From: Gloeobacterales cyanobacterium
GTDB taxonomy: Bacteria; Cyanobacteriota; Cyanobacteriia; Gloeobacterales; PMM-0068
Reading direction: 5' to 3'
Assembly: GCA_038245785.1 (NCBI GenBank)
Contig: JBBRSB010000001.1
Location: 96,001 to 160,000 of the forward strand
DNA: 64,000 nucleotides
Of the stretch, positions 55,607 to 62,891 are shown piece by piece. Position numbers and translations under genes: made by a program. The notes beneath the pieces were generated by a model. It did no database searches, was not told where the DNA came from, and saw only the letters and a list, made by a program, of their open reading frames with translations. The stretch's first letter is position 1. Every line of letters begins with the position of its first letter.

Positions 55607-56662
55607 CTACACTCCCAACCCCAGTTTTTCCCAGAGCGCATCTCGGCCCCCCTTTACACAATGCACCCGGCTTTCCTTCTTGAGGTGCGCCAAGACCCGA
55701 TTAATCGTCGGGCGGCTCACTGTTGGACAAGCCTTTTGGATATCCGAAATCTGGAATTGCTGGGGTAGACGAGCAATCGTGTCGGCAACCATCTCCCGTT
55801 TTGCTCCTTTCTGGGTTGTCACCACGCCAACCCGTTGCTCAAACCCGCGGTAGGCACTCAATACCACGCCCAGAAAATATTCCCACCAGGGCAACAGCTC
55901 ATGCTCTCCTTCATGCCATCTTTGAGAACATCGCTGAAGCGTTTCATCGTAACTTTCCTTCGTGCGCTCTATGATCGCTTCTAAGCTGATGTACCGCCCC
56001 ACTTCATATCCAGCTTGGTACAGCAATAACAACGACAACAGCCGCGCCATACGACCATTTCCATCTAAGAAAGGATGGACGCACAGAAAATCTAAGCTAC
56101 AGGTCGCAATCAGCAACAGGGGCTCAATCGTTCCTTCCTGCCAGTACTGATTAAAGTGCCCATGGAGTTCCTGCATCGCCTGAGGTGTGAGGTAAGCCGG
56201 AACGGGACGAAAGCGCACAACCGTTGTTCCATCGGCACGAGTTTCTCGAATATCGTTGTCAGATCCTTTCCAGACCCCGCCTTGAATCGGCAGAAACTGG
56301 GTTAAATCCCGATGGAGTTGCAGCACCAGACCAGGGGTAAAGGTCATGCCGTCATAGTTTGCATGGATGCTATTTAGCACCTCCCGATAGCCCAAGATCT
56401 CCTGCTCGGAGCGACTTTGGGGACTAACTTTATCCGCCATCAACAACTGGAGACGTTGGGGCACGGTGGCAATCCCCTCAATGCGGTTAGACGATTCCGT
56501 ACTTTGAATCACGGCAATCTGTCTCAAGCTTTCTAAAACCTGAGGCGACTGATTTTGAAACAGTGCTTGCTTCCCCTTGTACTCGCCCAACAGCCGAATG
56601 GTCTGCAAGAGCGATTGGGGAATCGGTTGACGTTCAATGACACCAGAAACAAAGGATTGCAT
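55607..56662 (-). CDS. Fic-family AMPylase with C-terminal winged helix
   Basis: STESSNRIEG, canonical HPFLDGNGRMARL, C-terminal VSRPTINRVL HTH. Confidence 0.93.
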   Translation of the reverse strand: MQSFVSGVIERQPIPQSLLQTIRLLGEYKGKQALFQNQSPQVLESLRQIAVIQSTESSNRIEGIATVPQRLQLLMADKVSPQSRSEQEILGYREVLNSIHANYDGMTFTPGLVLQLHRDLTQFLPIQGGVWKGSDNDIRETRADGTTVVRFRPVPAYLTPQAMQELHGHFNQYWQEGTIEPLLLIATCSLDFLCVHPFLDGNGRMARLLSLLLLYQAGYEVGRYISLEAIIERTKESYDETLQRCSQRWHEGEHELLPWWEYFLGVVLSAYRGFEQRVGVVTTQKGAKREMVADTIARLPQQFQISDIQKACPTVSRPTINRVLAHLKKESRVHCVKGGRDALWEKLGLGV

Positions 56663-56888
56663 AAGTCCCTAAACATGATCACATGAGTCCTAGATGATCA
56701 TGTTAACGAGATCATGATCACATTGCTCGGCATAGACCAAAAAGATTAACTTTTCTTCCCATGTAAGATAGTTTGGCCTTCTGTCCACGACTGTCACAGG
56801 CGATTGCCCCTTCGCAAAGCCTGCGTGGCCTACCCCATAGTCATTCCAGACCTGCTCCAAAAGACGAATTTATAAGAATTTCAGTATG
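56466..56888. repeat. Copy 1 of a ~400-bp direct repeat (fic 5' end plus upstream region)
   Basis: Aligns with 57750-58156; near-identical over the first ~260 bp, then diverging. Confidence 0.85.
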
Positions 56889-57020
56889 TCTTTGATCTCG
56901 ATTTTGAGGATCCGTTACTGGATAAAGCCTAAAAGCGTCGGAGGAGTTAGACTCAGAATCAAGGCATTGCTCGGTGCCAGGAACATACACTACGATATGG
57001 CAGATGAAGAAGGAGAGAAA

Positions 57021-57257
57021 ATGCTGAATGGACTTCGGCAAAAAACAGTCGTGCAGCCCGATGGTGTAGTTACCATTCAATCATCGGAATTACCGTTAGG
57101 AGCGACAGTGGAAGTCATTGTTCTCGTAGAACCGCAGCCGTCTGAACTTCCAGAACTTAGCCTTACGAGTTTAATCGGCACGGCTAAAGGCAGCTTTGCA
57201 ACACCTGAAGAGGCAGATCGGTTTATTCGACAAGAACGGGATTCATGGGAATCCTAG
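57021..57257 (+). CDS. Putative antitoxin (AbrB-like N-terminus)
   Basis: AAGGAG RBS; VVQPDGVVTI..LPLGATVEVIVLV; ends ADRFIRQERDSWE and overlaps the PIN gene. Confidence 0.75.
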   Translation: MLNGLRQKTVVQPDGVVTIQSSELPLGATVEVIVLVEPQPSELPELSLTSLIGTAKGSFATPEEADRFIRQERDSWES

Positions 57258-57688
57258 ACATCATTCAGGGCAATTTGGTGTATCTGGATGTCAATATCTG
57301 GATATATGCCTTGGAGGGCTACCCTGATTTTTGGGAGGAGATAACGCTGCTCTTTCAGGCTATTGATCGAGGAAATTTGAAAGCAGTCACGAGCGAACTG
57401 TCTTTGGCAGAAGCTTTAGTCAAGCCTATGCAACTCCAGAATGAATCCCTTCAAAAAGCTTACAAGACAGCGATATCCAACCGTCAAAATGTTGCAGTCC
57501 TTCCGGTGGAGCGCGAGATTTTGATTCAAGCTGCTCAATTGCGCTCAACGAGTAAGTTAAAACTCCCCGATGCGATTCATGGAGCTACTGCACTGAAAGC
57601 TCAATGCACTTCATTTTTGACCAATGACCGAGCTTTTAAGGAAATCACTAATCTTCATACTGTGCTTTTGTCAGAGGTCATTGAATGA
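57245..57688 (+). CDS. VapC-family PIN-domain toxin
   Basis: YLDVNIWIY, SELSLAE, KLPDAIHGATA, FLTND. Confidence 0.9.
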   Translation: MGILDIIQGNLVYLDVNIWIYALEGYPDFWEEITLLFQAIDRGNLKAVTSELSLAEALVKPMQLQNESLQKAYKTAISNRQNVAVLPVEREILIQAAQLRSTSKLKLPDAIHGATALKAQCTSFLTNDRAFKEITNLHTVLLSEVIE

Positions 57689-58170: not shown

Positions 58171-61100
58171 CTACTTCCCGGCATAGTTTTTGCAGGTTTG
58201 CTTTGCTTCCTTTGCCACATCAGTTTTAGGCTGAATAAGGCTGGGATTGTCGCGCAACTGATCGCAGGCGATTTGCAGTGAATGTTTCCAAGAAATATCC
58301 CAGATCCTTACCGTTCCGCCCTTGCTCCCACTTAAGATACGTTTGCCATCCGGACTGAACGCCACTGAAGTGACCAAAACATTATTATATTTGGAGAATT
58401 TGCCGATTTTGGAGGGTTGGCCGATTTTGAAAGGTTTGCCAATGGCTTCACCCGTGACGGCATTCCAAATCCTTACTGTCTTGTCGTTACTACCATTGAC
58501 AATGCGTTGGCCATCCGGACTAAATGCCACTGAAGTGACTGTATCCTCATCTTTGATGGGTTTGCCGATCGCTCCTACTGTGGCCACATTCCAAATCCTT
58601 ACTGTCTTGTCATTACTTCCACTGACAATACGTTGGCCATCGGGGCTGAACGCCACTGAATTAACATTAGCCTCATGACCGTTGAAAGGCCTGCCGATAG
58701 GTTGTCCCGTAGCCGCATCCCAAATCCTTATCGTTCCATCCCTACTACTACTTAAGATGCGTTTGCCATCGGGACTGAACGCAACTGAAGTGACTAAAAC
58801 ATCATAATATTTGGAGGGGTTAACAATTTTGGAGGGTTGGCCGAGTATGAAAGGTTTGCCAATGGCTTCACCCGTGGTCGCATTCCCAATCCTTACTGTT
58901 CCGTCATAACTAACACTTAAGATGCGTTTGCCATCGGGGTTGAACGCCACAGAAGTGATCCCATACTCATTACCTTTCAAAGGTAAAGGTTTGCCAATAG
59001 CTTCAGTCGTAGCTGCATTCCAAATCCTTACCGTTCCGCCAAGCCTGCCACTAACAATGTCTTTGCCATTAGGACTAAACGCTACTGAAGTGACTGTATC
59101 ATCCTCTTTAATCGGTTTACCCAGGGGCTTACCAGTGGCAGCTTCCCAAACCCGTATCGTTTTGTCCTCACTGCCACTGACGATGCGTTTGCCATCAGGA
59201 CTGTACGCCACTGACTTAACAACATCCGTATGCCCTTTGAGGGGTTGGCCGATGGGTTGGCCCGTAGCCGCATCCCAAATCCGTACTGTATTGTCCTTAT
59301 TAGTTCTTAAATAATCACTACTGCCACTGACGATACGTTTGCCATTAGGACTAAACGCCACTGCATTGACCGACTTCGTGTGTCCTATGAGGGCCTTGCC
59401 GATAGGTTCTCCTGTAGCCGCATCCCAAATCCTTACCGTTCCATCACGACTGCCACTGACAATGTGTTTACTATTGGGACTAAATGCAACTGAATTAACT
59501 TCAGCTTCATGGTGTAATTGATTTTGCTCCTGATTTTCCCGTATGACATCCAGTAAGCTCCCATACACAGCCTCAAATTGAGGCTGGTCAGAAAATAGAG
59601 CAAAAGCAGATTGACTCAAACCAGTTGCTGCAATTGCATTGATTTCTGCGTTTACAGGTTGGCTTGAAAGCAAAATTTCCGCATTTGTAGCCAACTGTTC
59701 AGCCCGCTGCCGCTGGGTCTGCTGCCCCTGATATGACGCAAAGGTTAATAAACCCAAAGTCAGCACAAGTCCTGTACTCAGGAATCCAAACCAAAGCTTT
59801 TGCTGTCGCCTATGCTCCCTCTCATCCTTCTCAGCTGCCTGCTTTTGGGCTTGTTCCAAATCGATAGAGGCCTTAAAAAGCTCGACTTGCAGCGGGGTCA
59901 TATCATCACCATCTCGGTCATAGTATTGCCGCAGCAAATCCAGATCGGGCGATCTCCAGAGGTTGCCCTCTGGTCGTCCATTTTTGCGCCAATAGATAGC
60001 CGATTCATCCAGTCGCCGTTGAAAGCGCAGATCGCTGCGACCGTTATCAAGCCACTTCTTCAATTGATCCCAGTTATCGAATAATGCCTCGTGGGTCACT
60101 TCAACAGTTTCTGAACTAGCATCGCCATCAGAGGCCAACGTAATTAGACGCGCACTAGGATCAGCAAACCGAGCAATCACCTGTCTGACCTCTTCAGGAC
60201 GGTCTCGATATGAAATCATTTGCTGAAGAGCTGTTCGACGACGTGTGTCTTTTGTCCCTTCTCCCAGTTGAACAAGTCCTAAAAACATCCGCCGCGCAAT
60301 ATTTTGTTCGTCAGGATTGAGATCCGAGTAGATCCGTTGTGCTTCTCCGGCCAGTGCCCCACCTACACCGCCAATTTCCGTCAGTGTCTGCGAGGGTTTC
60401 TTGCCATTTGTTAGTCCTTCCCAAATCCGTGTCAGGGCAAACTGGAGCAAGGGTAAAGCACCTTCCCGTCCTTCAGTCTGTTCAACCAGCAAGCTAACAG
60501 TAGATTCATCCAGGGCGTGTCCTGCCTGTTCCGCTGGTTTACGAATGGCGTCTCGGAGTCCATCCACACTCAGGGCAGAGACAAAAGACCCCTGCTCAGC
60601 AATCAATTGATTTAGCTGAGGATATTTCTGGGTTGCACCCAAAAAGTCGCTCCGCAGGGTAACGATCGCAGAAACCCTTTTTGCCAGGTCCTTAGATGCG
60701 CAAAGCAAATTCCCAATAAACGCATCGCGCTCAGCCTCATCTTCGCAAAGAGTATAAACCTCCTCCAATTGATCCGCCAAAACTATGAGCGGAGAGATAG
60801 CAATATCCGGCAACACATCCGCAATCCGACGTAACCCGTCATATTCGCCGTTTGCATTTTTCTTAGCCAGTTCCTCAGCAAACTCACGGGTCTTCGCCAC
60901 AGGGGTAAGGTCATTGGTCGCAATTCGTGCCAGAACTGTCGCTAGTGCTTCTAAGGGATGACTTCCAGGCACCAGCACTGCAACCTTAGGGTGCTCACGT
61001 CCAGGCAATGGTCGTCTATCTAGTTCCGGTATCAACCCTGCTCTTGCCAAGGAAGACTTTCCCGAACCCGATGGACCATAAATTGGCAATAGACGAATAG

Positions 61101-61404
61101 CAGATGGGGAATCATGCAGACTTCTGAACTTCGCCCAAAGCTCCTGGATTTGTTTCTTTCTTCCAAAAAAGCGCTCACCGTCCGTTTCTTGAAAGGCCAA
61201 CAATCCTTTGTAAGGGTTTGGACCCATTTTTTTGTCAGGTTTGACATCAGACTCTTTCGGCTCAATCGGTACATTGTTATAGATGACCGTTCCATAGACC
61301 ACCATCCCGCCGCTAAGCACCTGCCCAATGGTCTGGTTGCGATCGCCCTTCACATTCTGGTTAATCGGTGGATCTGAGTCTGGAGTAAGAGGAGAATCAG
61401 GCAT
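58171..61404 (-). CDS. NLR-like STAND NTPase (nSTAND1-type) with N-terminal amyloid-like motif, TM helix and WD40 repeats
   Basis: NPYKGLLAF..FFGR, Walker A GPSGSGKSS, Walker B IVLADQLEE, LRSDF, GALPLLQFAL, VTHEAL; TM LWFGFLSTGLVLTLGLLTFASY; nine WD40 repeats. Confidence 0.92.
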   Translation of the reverse strand: MPDSPLTPDSDPPINQNVKGDRNQTIGQVLSGGMVVYGTVIYNNVPIEPKESDVKPDKKMGPNPYKGLLAFQETDGERFFGRKKQIQELWAKFRSLHDSPSAIRLLPIYGPSGSGKSSLARAGLIPELDRRPLPGREHPKVAVLVPGSHPLEALATVLARIATNDLTPVAKTREFAEELAKKNANGEYDGLRRIADVLPDIAISPLIVLADQLEEVYTLCEDEAERDAFIGNLLCASKDLAKRVSAIVTLRSDFLGATQKYPQLNQLIAEQGSFVSALSVDGLRDAIRKPAEQAGHALDESTVSLLVEQTEGREGALPLLQFALTRIWEGLTNGKKPSQTLTEIGGVGGALAGEAQRIYSDLNPDEQNIARRMFLGLVQLGEGTKDTRRRTALQQMISYRDRPEEVRQVIARFADPSARLITLASDGDASSETVEVTHEALFDNWDQLKKWLDNGRSDLRFQRRLDESAIYWRKNGRPEGNLWRSPDLDLLRQYYDRDGDDMTPLQVELFKASIDLEQAQKQAAEKDEREHRRQQKLWFGFLSTGLVLTLGLLTFASYQGQQTQRQRAEQLATNAEILLSSQPVNAEINAIAATGLSQSAFALFSDQPQFEAVYGSLLDVIRENQEQNQLHHEAEVNSVAFSPNSKHIVSGSRDGTVRIWDAATGEPIGKALIGHTKSVNAVAFSPNGKRIVSGSSDYLRTNKDNTVRIWDAATGQPIGQPLKGHTDVVKSVAYSPDGKRIVSGSEDKTIRVWEAATGKPLGKPIKEDDTVTSVAFSPNGKDIVSGRLGGTVRIWNAATTEAIGKPLPLKGNEYGITSVAFNPDGKRILSVSYDGTVRIGNATTGEAIGKPFILGQPSKIVNPSKYYDVLVTSVAFSPDGKRILSSSRDGTIRIWDAATGQPIGRPFNGHEANVNSVAFSPDGQRIVSGSNDKTVRIWNVATVGAIGKPIKDEDTVTSVAFSPDGQRIVNGSNDKTVRIWNAVTGEAIGKPFKIGQPSKIGKFSKYNNVLVTSVAFSPDGKRILSGSKGGTVRIWDISWKHSLQIACDQLRDNPSLIQPKTDVAKEAKQTCKNYAGK

Positions 61405-61856
61405 CAAGACAACTCATTCGTCACATTCCCCTGAACAGTGCCATATACTACTTGACCACCCTTCATCTGCCCAATTACCTGATTTTGATTCCCGGTGACA
61501 GTTTGGACAACTTGGAGTCCAGGAGTGCCATCAGGAGCGTTTTCTTGGAGAATTCGAGCGATCTCTTTGGTCAGTTCTTTATCCTGCTCTAATATTTTTT
61601 GTAATTGTCGTTTGAGGGCAATTCTCGACTCTTCATCCTCTGGATTATTCGCCACATCCGCAGCGGCTTCTTTTGCCGCTTCCTTGGTCTCCACCTTAGG
61701 ACTTAACTTCTCCCAAACCGCCTGTGCCTTACCCCAAGCCGCCTCGCCAAACTTCCCCGAAGCAGATTCAGTCGCTTTCTCCACCGCCTTTCCACCTAAT
61801 TTCAACAGAAAGGGTAAGAACGGGCTGATGAACCCTGTCAAAACGGCGATTTCCAT
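61404..61856 (-). CDS. Small helical (Bell-like) putative effector with C-terminal amyloid-like signalling motif
   Basis: Hydrophobic N-terminus (VLTGFISPFLPFLLKLG), helical body (FGEAAWGKAQAVWEKL...LKRQLQKILEQD), low-complexity tail; TGATG overlap with the NLR. Confidence 0.8.
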   Translation of the reverse strand: MEIAVLTGFISPFLPFLLKLGGKAVEKATESASGKFGEAAWGKAQAVWEKLSPKVETKEAAKEAAADVANNPEDEESRIALKRQLQKILEQDKELTKEIARILQENAPDGTPGLQVVQTVTGNQNQVIGQMKGGQVVYGTVQGNVTNELS

Positions 61857-62217
61857 GTTCAAATCCTTATTTGAAAAAACCATTACCCATAACTTGCAAT
61901 ATCAGGAGCTAAGTTGCGACATGCCAGAATTCCAAGATTTTCACATACCCAGCATGACACGTAGATATCCAAGTGTAATCATACTGAGTTGAAGCAGAAA
62001 GTCAATTGAAAGATCTTTCGGTTAATTTGGTGAGCTTTTAGCCGATTTTGACTTTCCTGCAATTTTATTTGATTTGGTCGAACATTAGGTTGTGGGGAAC
62101 GGCTCCATCCACCGTGAGGATAAGAGGCGCAGAAAGCAAGCGGTGACTATACTCAAGTTATCTACCTCTACTCCAGTAGCTTTTTGAGCGAATATTTATT
62201 CTAAGAGTTGATCAAGC

Positions 62218-62514
62218 ATGCTTACCACGACTGACATTGGTACATTAATCACTCGTTCTTCAGAAATCGGGAGTGGTCGTCCGATGATTGCGGGCACGAG
62301 AACCTCGGTAAGGCGCGTGGTTGTTCTATATAAACAAGGTGCAGGTGCAGAAGAAATAGCCCGTCGCATGAGTCATCTCAGCCTTGCCCAGGTTTATGCG
62401 GCACTAGCTTACTATCATGCCAACCGCGACGAGATTGAAGCAGATTTGGCTGAAGAGGAAGCTGAATATTCCAGATTAGCAGCAGCACACGGTAAAAATG
62501 CTGGACAGAGCTAG
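62218..62514 (+). CDS. DUF433 antitoxin
   Basis: GRPMIAGTRTSV, LSLAQVYAALAYYHANRDEI. Confidence 0.9.
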   Translation: MLTTTDIGTLITRSSEIGSGRPMIAGTRTSVRRVVVLYKQGAGAEEIARRMSHLSLAQVYAALAYYHANRDEIEADLAEEEAEYSRLAAAHGKNAGQS

Positions 62515-62516
62515 GA

Positions 62517-62891
62517 ATGGGCAAAATTCTGCTGTATCTTGATGAAGACTCAATGGATCAGGACTTTGTACAGGCGCTGCGGTCACGCAATGTCGATGTT
62601 CTGACCGTTGCAGATGCAGGGATGTTCTACAGGACAGATGAAGAGCAGCTCGCCTGGGCAGCAGAACATTATCGAGTCATTTTCAGCTTCAATACAAGAG
62701 ATTTTTATCGCTTGCACACGATTTTGCTGGAGCAGGGATTGTCTCATGCAGGAATTGTGCTAGCACCGCAACAGCGATATGGAGTGGGCGAACTCATGCG
62801 CGGAGTTCTAAATTTGATTAATACTAAGTCGGCAGAAGAGATGGTTAGTCAACTAGAATTTCTGAGTGATTGGGTCCCAGGAGAAAGATGA
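62517..62891 (+). CDS. DUF5615 PIN-like toxin
   Basis: LYLDEDS, DEEQLAWA, FSFNTRDF, HAGIVL; follows DUF433. Confidence 0.88.
   Translation: MGKILLYLDEDSMDQDFVQALRSRNVDVLTVADAGMFYRTDEEQLAWAAEHYRVIFSFNTRDFYRLHTILLEQGLSHAGIVLAPQQRYGVGELMRGVLNLINTKSAEEMVSQLEFLSDWVPGER

Follow-up and report, generated by a model that had tools for sequence, protein, structure and literature searches.

A pair of genes on the minus strand of a 64,000-nucleotide stretch (the window) from a Gloeobacterales cyanobacterium (GCA_038245785.1, contig JBBRSB010000001.1, positions 96,001 to 160,000) encodes a small protein and a large STAND-type protein that carry the same short motif, at the C-terminus of the former and near the N-terminus of the latter. 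The two genes probably form a module of the Bell/BASS-NLR type that serves cell death or defence, in which the small protein (the effector) would be armed by the large one (the receptor). The match between the two motifs is real, old, and kept at the protein level, and the same pairing is observed in related loci. The two genes and their motifs are as follows.

58171-61404, minus strand: receptor gene, 1077 residues from the ATG; motif, nSTAND1 NTPase, hydrophobic helix, and WD40 repeats
61404-61856, minus strand: effector gene, 150 residues; Bell-type helical domain and C-terminal signalling tail
61285-61359, minus strand: receptor-side motif, receptor residues 16-40
61434-61505, minus strand: effector-side motif, effector residues 118-141
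61407-61529, minus strand: wider effector tail of low confidence that contains the effector-side motif

Motif pairing in the window and in related loci

The effector and receptor motifs are identical at 16 of 24 aligned residues, over 25 columns with one gap. The BLASTP comparison of the two proteins exhibits one significant segment (20/38 identities, E = 4e-07 for this single comparison), and the rest of both proteins is without significant similarity. The Smith-Waterman score of the motifs is 82, compared with a mean of 38.2 for shuffled sequences (standard deviation 5.6, maximum 66), and none of 1000 shuffles reached 82. Different codons are used at 11 of the 16 identical residues and the nucleotide identity is 46/72, therefore the match does not derive from recent DNA duplication or gene conversion. 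Both copies, which are 24 and 25 residues long, are rich in Q, N, G, and V. Both partners of the window pair also end in a common VVYGTV stretch that has no counterpart in other effectors.

Both open reading frames (ORFs) are co-directional on the minus strand, with the effector gene upstream. Their junction reads TGATG, where the effector stop codon TGA (61406-61404) and the receptor ATG (61404-61402) overlap by one base. The effector start codon is the ATG at 61856, whose Met is invariant in 20/20 aligned homologues, and AAGGA is located just 5' of it. An earlier note on this DNA had pointed to 16 identical columns of 25 between otherwise unrelated proteins, to a suggested selection on the motif at the protein level, and to the TGATG overlap of the genes. 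All three points are confirmed by the alignments and shuffles, by the codon differences, and by the shared base of stop and start, respectively.

Bell loci were gathered from species genomes and metagenomes, which yielded 47 ORFs with the Bell-type domain (loci are labelled L and proteins P below). A downstream partner, defined as a co-directional ORF of at least 150 residues within 400 nucleotides, is present in 38 of the 47. The effector tail is similar to the first 90 residues of the next gene at a shuffle p<=0.01 in 31/38 Bell loci. The tail type of the window has a matching downstream motif in 16/16 loci, or in 13 after the removal of redundancy (L042 and L048 are identical to L003 and L046, and L041 is near-identical to L003). 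The partners in these 16 loci comprise nine nSTAND1-like proteins, four other P-loop proteins, among which the L004 and L007 partners are NB-ARC-TPR proteins by Pfam, and three proteins without a visible P-loop. Where the effector has another tail type, the neighbour begins with that same other type, for example in L013, L025, L031, L032, and L038.

The motifs also drift together. Cognate pairs score 73.2 compared with 66.2 for non-cognate pairs (permutation p = 0.0005, n = 17 pairs), an excess that is modest, with a p value that overstates independence because the 17 pairs are related by descent. The window pair ranks 1/17 in both directions because both of its partners end in the VVYGTV stretch. 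Private deviations of the motif that are common to both members of a pair were identified in L007, L012, L014, L043, and L051. The earlier note had named homologous pairs lacking matched motifs as grounds for giving up the idea; matched motifs are kept in the collected pairs (16/16 and 31/38) and they co-vary.

Several related loci depart from the simple layout. L015, L017, L021, L023, L028, and L029 encode a Bell protein with one other tail type near position 1400-1930 of the locus, and the P-loop gene located 39-114 nucleotides downstream has a called N-terminus without a matching motif. In these six unmatched loci, either the motif has been lost, or the partner is elsewhere, or the start has been miscalled. 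The effector gene of L006 (761-1446) lies in two frames on a contig of about 2.8x coverage by its name, with the downstream matched-motif gene intact, and in L005 (5001-5243) only the first 36 profile positions are left. The defects of both effector genes may be decay or assembly errors. L008 (10-654 and 729-1163) has an effector with the window tail type and without a downstream partner. A gene with WD40 repeats ends 75 nucleotides before this effector, and its product is similar to the L003 receptor at the C-terminus. The gene order in the L008 contig may be reversed. Single-chain proteins that have the Bell domain ahead of nSTAND1, whether or not the motif is also present, were likewise identified (P0129, P0131, and P0316), and some of these fusions may be read-through artefacts of single contigs.

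Domains of the effector and the receptor

The domains and segments of both proteins are as follows.

61542-61856, minus strand: globular all-helical Bell-type domain, effector residues 1-105, from the AlphaFold2 model
61797-61850, minus strand: N-terminal hydrophobic helix after Glu2, effector residues 3-20
59968-61215, minus strand: nSTAND1 NTPase domain (PF20703), receptor residues 64-479, E = 2.7e-108
61054-61077, minus strand: P-loop GPSGSGKS within the nSTAND1 domain
59740-59796, minus strand: single hydrophobic, transmembrane-like helix, receptor residues 537-555, Kyte-Doolittle 1.8 over 19 residues
58240-59499, minus strand: WD40 repeat region of nine repeats, presumed sensor, Pfam E = 1.3e-101 in 9 stretches

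The effector exhibits only sub-threshold noise in Pfam, NCBIfam, and PADLOC. A total of 275 effector homologues were identified at E<=0.001 among 578 candidates. The 120 listed homologues are mostly about 146 residues long and, the window protein aside, 66-80% identical; the few named ones among the matches listed are from cyanobacteria, plus one Nanopelagicaceae bin. An exhaustive search with the effector-family profile yielded 1636 proteins at E<=0.001. The AlphaFold2 model, which was built from 83 diverse family sequences, exhibits helices at residues 3-20, 25-36, 38-57, 59-70, 75-91, and 93-104 as assigned by DSSP. The block pLDDT of the helical domain lies mostly at 83-91 but falls to 57 and 71 within residues 21-40, and that of the tail (residues 110-150) is <50. 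The first helix reaches a Kyte-Doolittle value of 1.98 over 15 residues (residues 3-17), and D or E occupies position 2 or 3 in 70/83 family members.

The helical domain of the effector is read as a Bell domain because the same N-terminal domain carries published BASS-type tails. The tails of the profile matches resemble the Bell-side samples of BASS6, BASS9, BASS1-like, and RHIM-like BASS3 in the Dyrka 2021 supplement, whose cluster names were mapped to BASS numbers by the README of that supplement. The N-termini of Bell, HeLo, MLKL, and RPW8 have been described as hydrophobic helices in which position 2 or 3 is acidic (Dyrka 2020, 10.1101/2020.01.06.895854), and the window effector has such a helix with Glu2. 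It also agrees with the Bell description in having an all-alpha domain of about 100 residues, with six helices in the model compared with the five-helix bundles of published models, and in being a short stand-alone protein (150 residues) that more rarely occurs as the N-terminal domain of NLRs, as in the fused forms mentioned above. The claims of the earlier note that the small protein is a Bell-like helical effector and that its N-terminal helix is hydrophobic are thus supported, the former by the published BASS-type tails within the family and the latter by hydropathy, the model helix 3-20, and Glu2. The ESM Atlas returned unnamed cyanobacterial clusters only. A HetE-N identity was considered for the effector from an ESM Atlas cluster with 12% HetE-N members and was rejected, as 0/83 family members match the Pfam model at E<=0.01.

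The signalling part of the effector agrees with what has been described for BASS pairs, where the same motif of about 20-25 residues is found at the effector C-terminus and at the N-terminus of the adjacent, collinear receptor. The family tails are composed of Q (14%), N (13%), G (20%), V (16%), and I (10%), with little K (2%), P (0%), and L (1%). Together Q, N, G, V, I, and T account for 86% of the residues and K, P, and L for 3.5%. The tails therefore exhibit the published BASS bias, in which Q, N, G, V, and I are enriched and K, P, and L are depleted (Dyrka 2020).

The earlier note could place the motif in no published BASS family and considered that it may be new, which holds in part. The motif is not among the ten logos described by Dyrka 2020, but the BASS1 cluster in the supplement of Dyrka 2021 contains a cyanobacterial Bell tail with a near-identical core (A0A2W4ZHR4_9CYAN), the only tail of the window type found in the part of that supplement covered. 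P0155, a close relative of that tail, matches the effector profile at E = 4.7e-34. BASS1 has been described as actinobacterial (Dyrka 2020), and most BASS1 samples are unlike the window motif in a comparison that was made against sample sequences and not against a profile. The window motif type thus appears to have been swept into the published set without being described as such, and it is not wholly new. Cyanobacteria have this motif type in abundance, but the published classification does not show it as a type of its own. The peptide strings of the window-type motif gave no match in a full-text literature search, and a literature search for BASS11, BASS12, and BASS13 returned only the BASS11 preprint.

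Tails of this family have also been touched by another nomenclature. The Pfam model of the effector-associated domain (EAD) EAD10 matches above threshold the tails of 2/83 Bell-family proteins (P0221, residues 107-145, and P0245, residues 115-143), so at least one such tail has already been catalogued by the Aravind group as an EAD. EAD10 occurs on TPR-GreA/B-C-PIN proteins (Kaur 2021, PMC8195603). TPR-GreA/B-C-PIN is the architecture of Agp, whose motif has been named BASS11 (Ibarlosa 2024), and the names EAD10 and BASS11 may denote one tag. None of EAD1-10 was found in the window proteins at E<=1 among the matches listed, which for the receptor are the best 25 of 70 families, and no EAD model matches receptor residues 1-536 at E<=0.001.

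Additional domains are present in some effector relatives. P0153 has a TIR domain (residues 8-107, Pfam E 3.5e-16) ahead of the Bell-type domain and the motif tail. L039 and L051 encode the Bell domain, the motif, and a CHAT (caspase-like) domain in one protein according to Pfam, L052 encodes a Bell-motif-CHAT protein by its likeness to L051, and in L012 CHAT precedes Bell. The next gene in L051 and L052 encodes about 410 residues and begins with the matching motif; the one in L051 has no Pfam family. The Bell/CHAT fusion ORFs are as follows.

L039, 258-1406: Bell/CHAT fusion
L051, 4001-5185: Bell/CHAT fusion
L052, 4001-5170: Bell/CHAT fusion
L012, 1498-2538, minus strand: Bell/CHAT fusion

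The nSTAND1 match of the receptor is full-length, covering profile positions 1-378 of 379 with 363 bits compared with a cut-off of 27.1. Only nSTAND1 and AAA_16 match receptor residues 1-536 at E<=0.001, residues 1-64 have no Pfam domain match, and the family scans identified no protease or peptidase domain in the receptor. Eight of the WD40 repeats were caught by an anchor pattern and are 51-82% identical in pairs (mean 64%), and the ninth lies inside a 100-residue segment. A search for tandem repeats in the WD40 DNA detected a single 135-nucleotide period of 1.8 copies with 76% matches, and no array of high identity. The STAND-TM-WD40 receptor (TM, transmembrane) without an enzymatic N-terminal domain that the earlier note had described is thus supported, with a transmembrane-like helix in the place of the TM segment and with the correction that the NTPase is nSTAND1 and not NB-ARC or NACHT.

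A total of 2713 receptor homologues were identified at E<=1e-20 among 8000 scored candidates, and the counts of N-terminus, helix, and sensor given here refer to the best 120 of these 2713. The motif pattern is matched by 73 of the best 120 NTPase homologues. Others combine this NTPase core with close variants of the motif or with clearly different N-terminal motifs. In a separate comparison of 14 partner N-termini the core of the motif is conserved, and the conserved core reads N-Q-x-I-G-Q. P0293-P0306 and P0348-P0375 are nSTAND1 homologues that are 56-72% identical over 600 residues and have quite different N-terminal motifs, among which there are at least two other recurrent motif types; one of these resembles the Bell tails of P0197, P0224, and P0257. 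The pattern in these sequences points to an N-terminal tag that has often been swapped on one NTPase core, a modular behaviour that is expected of a signalling tag.

A hydrophobic stretch is present 380-520 residues past the P-loop in 98 of the best 120 homologues. The mean number of K and R is 4.8 in the 15 residues before the stretch and 2.2 in the 15 residues after it, and the number is higher before the stretch in 92/98. The WD40 domain has been replaced in 12 of the best 120, by an FGE-type domain in five and by a periplasmic-binding-protein domain in seven, and all 12 keep the hydrophobic stretch. These features fit a single-pass topology with the N-terminus inside and the C-terminus outside, which would place the sensor outside the cytoplasm. 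As a tentative extension, the motif-paired nSTAND1 clade might constitute a large undescribed class of single-pass transmembrane NLR-like receptors with a periplasmic sensor (WD40, FGE-type lectin, or periplasmic-binding-protein domain) and a cytoplasmic NTPase and amyloid-type tag, where an outside cue would be converted into an amyloid nucleus that arms a Bell-type protein at the membrane.

Proposed mechanism and rival explanations

In the proposed mechanism, a cue would be detected by the WD40 sensor, which probably lies beyond the cytoplasmic membrane, whereas the NTPase and the motif would be inside. The NTPase would oligomerise and the N-terminal motifs would cluster into a cross-beta nucleus, which would template the same fold on the effector tail. 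The N-terminal helix of the effector would then be freed to insert into the membrane, and the cell would be killed or arrested. Amyloid formation, membrane attack, and an anti-phage role are proposed for the window pair by analogy with its family. BASS1 and BASS3 have been reported to form fibrils and to exhibit prion behaviour, with receptor-side motifs converting effector-side ones (Dyrka 2020), and Bab/Agp with BASS11 has been reported as an abortive-infection system in E. coli, where the helical domain localises to the periphery of the cell (Ibarlosa 2024). Amyloid templating is favoured because these relatives form fibrils or prions and because the tail composition fits the published BASS bias. 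A predicted complex of the effector tail with the receptor N-terminus, in two copies of either chain, received a score of 0.02, with the mark at 0.32.

Several findings weigh against the Bell/BASS-NLR reading of the pair. The receptor has no NB-ARC or NACHT match at E<=0.001, unlike the published definition of NLRs. The Bell label of the effector comes from the comparison of tails and not from an alignment to the published seed ONI86675.1. Foldseek found no match of the helical domain in the PDB at E<=0.001, the best Z in a wide VIA-align search was 4.8, which is within helical-bundle noise, and these fold searches linked the domain to no solved pore-former, HeLo, MLKL, or Bab structure. The search of the effector-family profile against the sequences of solved structures gave a best E of 0.045, for a designed protein. 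There is no matched motif downstream in 7/38 loci (L015, L017, L021, L023, L028, L029, and L034), thus motif pairing is not universal in the wider Bell family, and the cognate excess among pairs of common descent is modest, as stated above. The evidence for an outside placement of the WD40 domain consists of hydrophobicity, charge bias, and domain swaps.

The main rival to the amyloid reading is that the motif is a conventional homotypic adaptor, an EAD that docks the small protein onto the NTPase at a set stoichiometry, perhaps through addition of a beta-strand, and that involves no self-propagating amyloid templating. This is considered unlikely. Such coupling, where the same short domain is found on the NTPase N-terminus and on the neighbouring effector, has been described for nSTAND-type systems (Kaur 2020, 2021), the EAD10 model matches the tails of two effector-family proteins so that such tails are catalogued as adaptors, and the amyloid nature of the window motif is drawn from related systems. 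However, the length of about 25 residues, the composition rich in Q, N, G, V, and I and poor in K, P, and L, and the C-terminal and N-terminal placement are traits of proven amyloid prion motifs (Dyrka 2020; Ibarlosa 2024). The near-identical tail that is filed with BASS1 and the lack of a predicted stable fold of its own in the effector tail also argue against the adaptor reading. If amyloid templating does occur, the module may still serve another purpose than phage defence, with the exposed sensor reading a cue from the periplasm or from outside the cell (contact with kin or non-kin, damage to the envelope, or a secreted molecule) for developmental or social cell death, and we regard this as somewhat doubtful. 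It would agree with the helix between NTPase and sensor in 98/120 homologues and its positive-inside charge bias in 92/98, with the periplasmic-binding-protein (7/120) or FGE-type (5/120) domains that replace WD40 behind the helix, and with the reported enrichment of Bell and NLR genes in multicellular bacteria (Dyrka 2020). Against it, the sensor topology is read from sequence, the one bacterial BASS pair that has been studied by experiment defends against phages (Ibarlosa 2024), and the neighbouring genes are toxin-antitoxin-like (Fic, PIN, and DUF433/DUF5615), as in defence islands.

The two other explanations bear on the identity of the small protein and on the motif match itself. The small protein could be a protease-gated pore former of the EACC1 kind that is freed by cleavage and not by templating, since EACC1, a small protein that acts on membranes, is switched on by a neighbouring caspase (Evans 2025, PMC12642450) and effector homologues are fused to CHAT in L039, L051, and L012. 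This is highly improbable for the window pair. The receptor has no protease domain, EACC1 has been described as a single TM helix with alpha+beta extensions (Kaur 2020) whereas the window domain is all-helical, and no Pfam EACC or EAD model matches the effector. An EACC1-caspase module is rejected because the partner has no N-terminal caspase-type protease. The compositional bias of both segments could also suggest that their similarity arose by chance between low-complexity segments, or that it reflects a recent local duplication without function. The likelihood of either is negligible, as both are refuted by the shuffles (0/1000), the codon differences (11/16), and the recurrent pairing (16/16 related loci). 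The Bell/BASS-NLR module is the preferred reading of the window pair.

Known systems, genomic setting and distribution

The window pair is similar to the Bell/BASS/NLR pairs of filamentous bacteria described by Dyrka 2020. Common to both are a helical effector of about 100 residues whose first helix is hydrophobic and whose position 2 or 3 is acidic, a Q/N/G-rich motif of about 25 residues that the effector bears C-terminally and the receptor N-terminally, overlapping genes in collinear order, a STAND receptor with WD repeats, and a cyanobacterial host. Unlike those pairs, the NTPase of the window receptor is nSTAND1, a hydrophobic helix lies between the NTPase and WD40, and the motif is outside the described logos. 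The pair is also similar to Bab/Agp (Ibarlosa 2024), which combines a small helical Bell-related executioner that has a C-terminal amyloid motif with a large neighbouring sensor that has the same motif N-terminally, and for which membrane attack after templating has been proposed. However, Bab/Agp has a motif of a different family, Bab is shorter (109 residues), and its function has been shown, whereas the window pair is known from its genes. In fungal HET-S/NWD2, the N-terminus of a NACHT-WD receptor likewise templates the prion-forming tail of a helical pore former, and the fungal effector tail contains two pseudo-repeats. No sequence or fold relationship of the window pair to HET-S/NWD2 was detected in the family scans and fold searches.

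The EAD-coupled STAND and nSTAND1-FGS systems (Kaur 2020, PMC7159879; Kaur 2021, PMC8195603) share with the window pair nSTAND1, a short N-terminal adaptor that is common to the neighbouring effector, and a variable C-terminal sensor (WD40 or FGE-type). Unlike the reading in this work, Kaur 2020 and 2021 treat the adaptors as domains and not as amyloids, and lectin-type sensors as intracellular, and no link of nSTAND1 to Bell or amyloid signalling was found by term searches and in the passages of these papers covered. The EACC1-caspase modules (Kaur 2020; Evans 2025, PMC12642450) are similar in that a small membrane-acting death effector is encoded 5' of a large sensor-bearing partner. They differ in that EACC1 is activated by proteolysis and is alpha+beta around one TM helix, while the window operon encodes no protease.

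The flanks of the operon exhibit the following features.

55607-56662, minus strand: Fic/DOC protein gene
56886-57688, plus strand: small gene and PIN-domain gene
61978-62005, minus strand: promoter-like site with weak evidence, TTGACT-16-TATGAT, 10/12 matches
62218-62891, plus strand: DUF433 and DUF5615 gene pair

The toxin-antitoxin-like flanking genes are compatible with a defence island and prove nothing. Six promoter-like sites are present near the operon compared with 5.3 expected by chance, and the promoter and terminator scan did not exceed shuffled sequence. The sequencing runs that contain the stretch are DNA runs from one sediment-metagenome study, with no RNA run among them.

The window genome contains one Bell gene, one strong nSTAND1 gene, and two marginal nSTAND1 matches. 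Bell-type matches at E<=1e-10 were identified in 27/401 sampled genomes of the phylum, the window genome included, and in 18/156 genera. The locus is therefore a compact single-copy test system, with one Bell gene and one strong nSTAND1 gene in the genome.

Amyloid signalling from NLRs to pore-forming executioners connects the cell-death pathways of fungi, animals, and bacteria, and the sole bacterial pair found with a functional test is Bab/Agp of E. coli (Ibarlosa 2024). The Bell/BASS design is known; the window pair departs from it in the nSTAND1 clade of its receptor, in the membrane helix conserved there, and in a sensor that is probably outside. With nSTAND1, a further STAND clade is added to the design. 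Cyanobacteria have very many members of this clade, and screens limited to NB-ARC or NACHT would largely miss such receptors. If the sensor is truly outside, these would be NLR-like receptors that read extracytoplasmic cues, with phage adsorption, neighbours, or envelope damage as candidate cues. If the wider class proposed above is real, it would represent a death switch that works from the outside in, whereas the bacterial NLRs studied to date are cytosolic.

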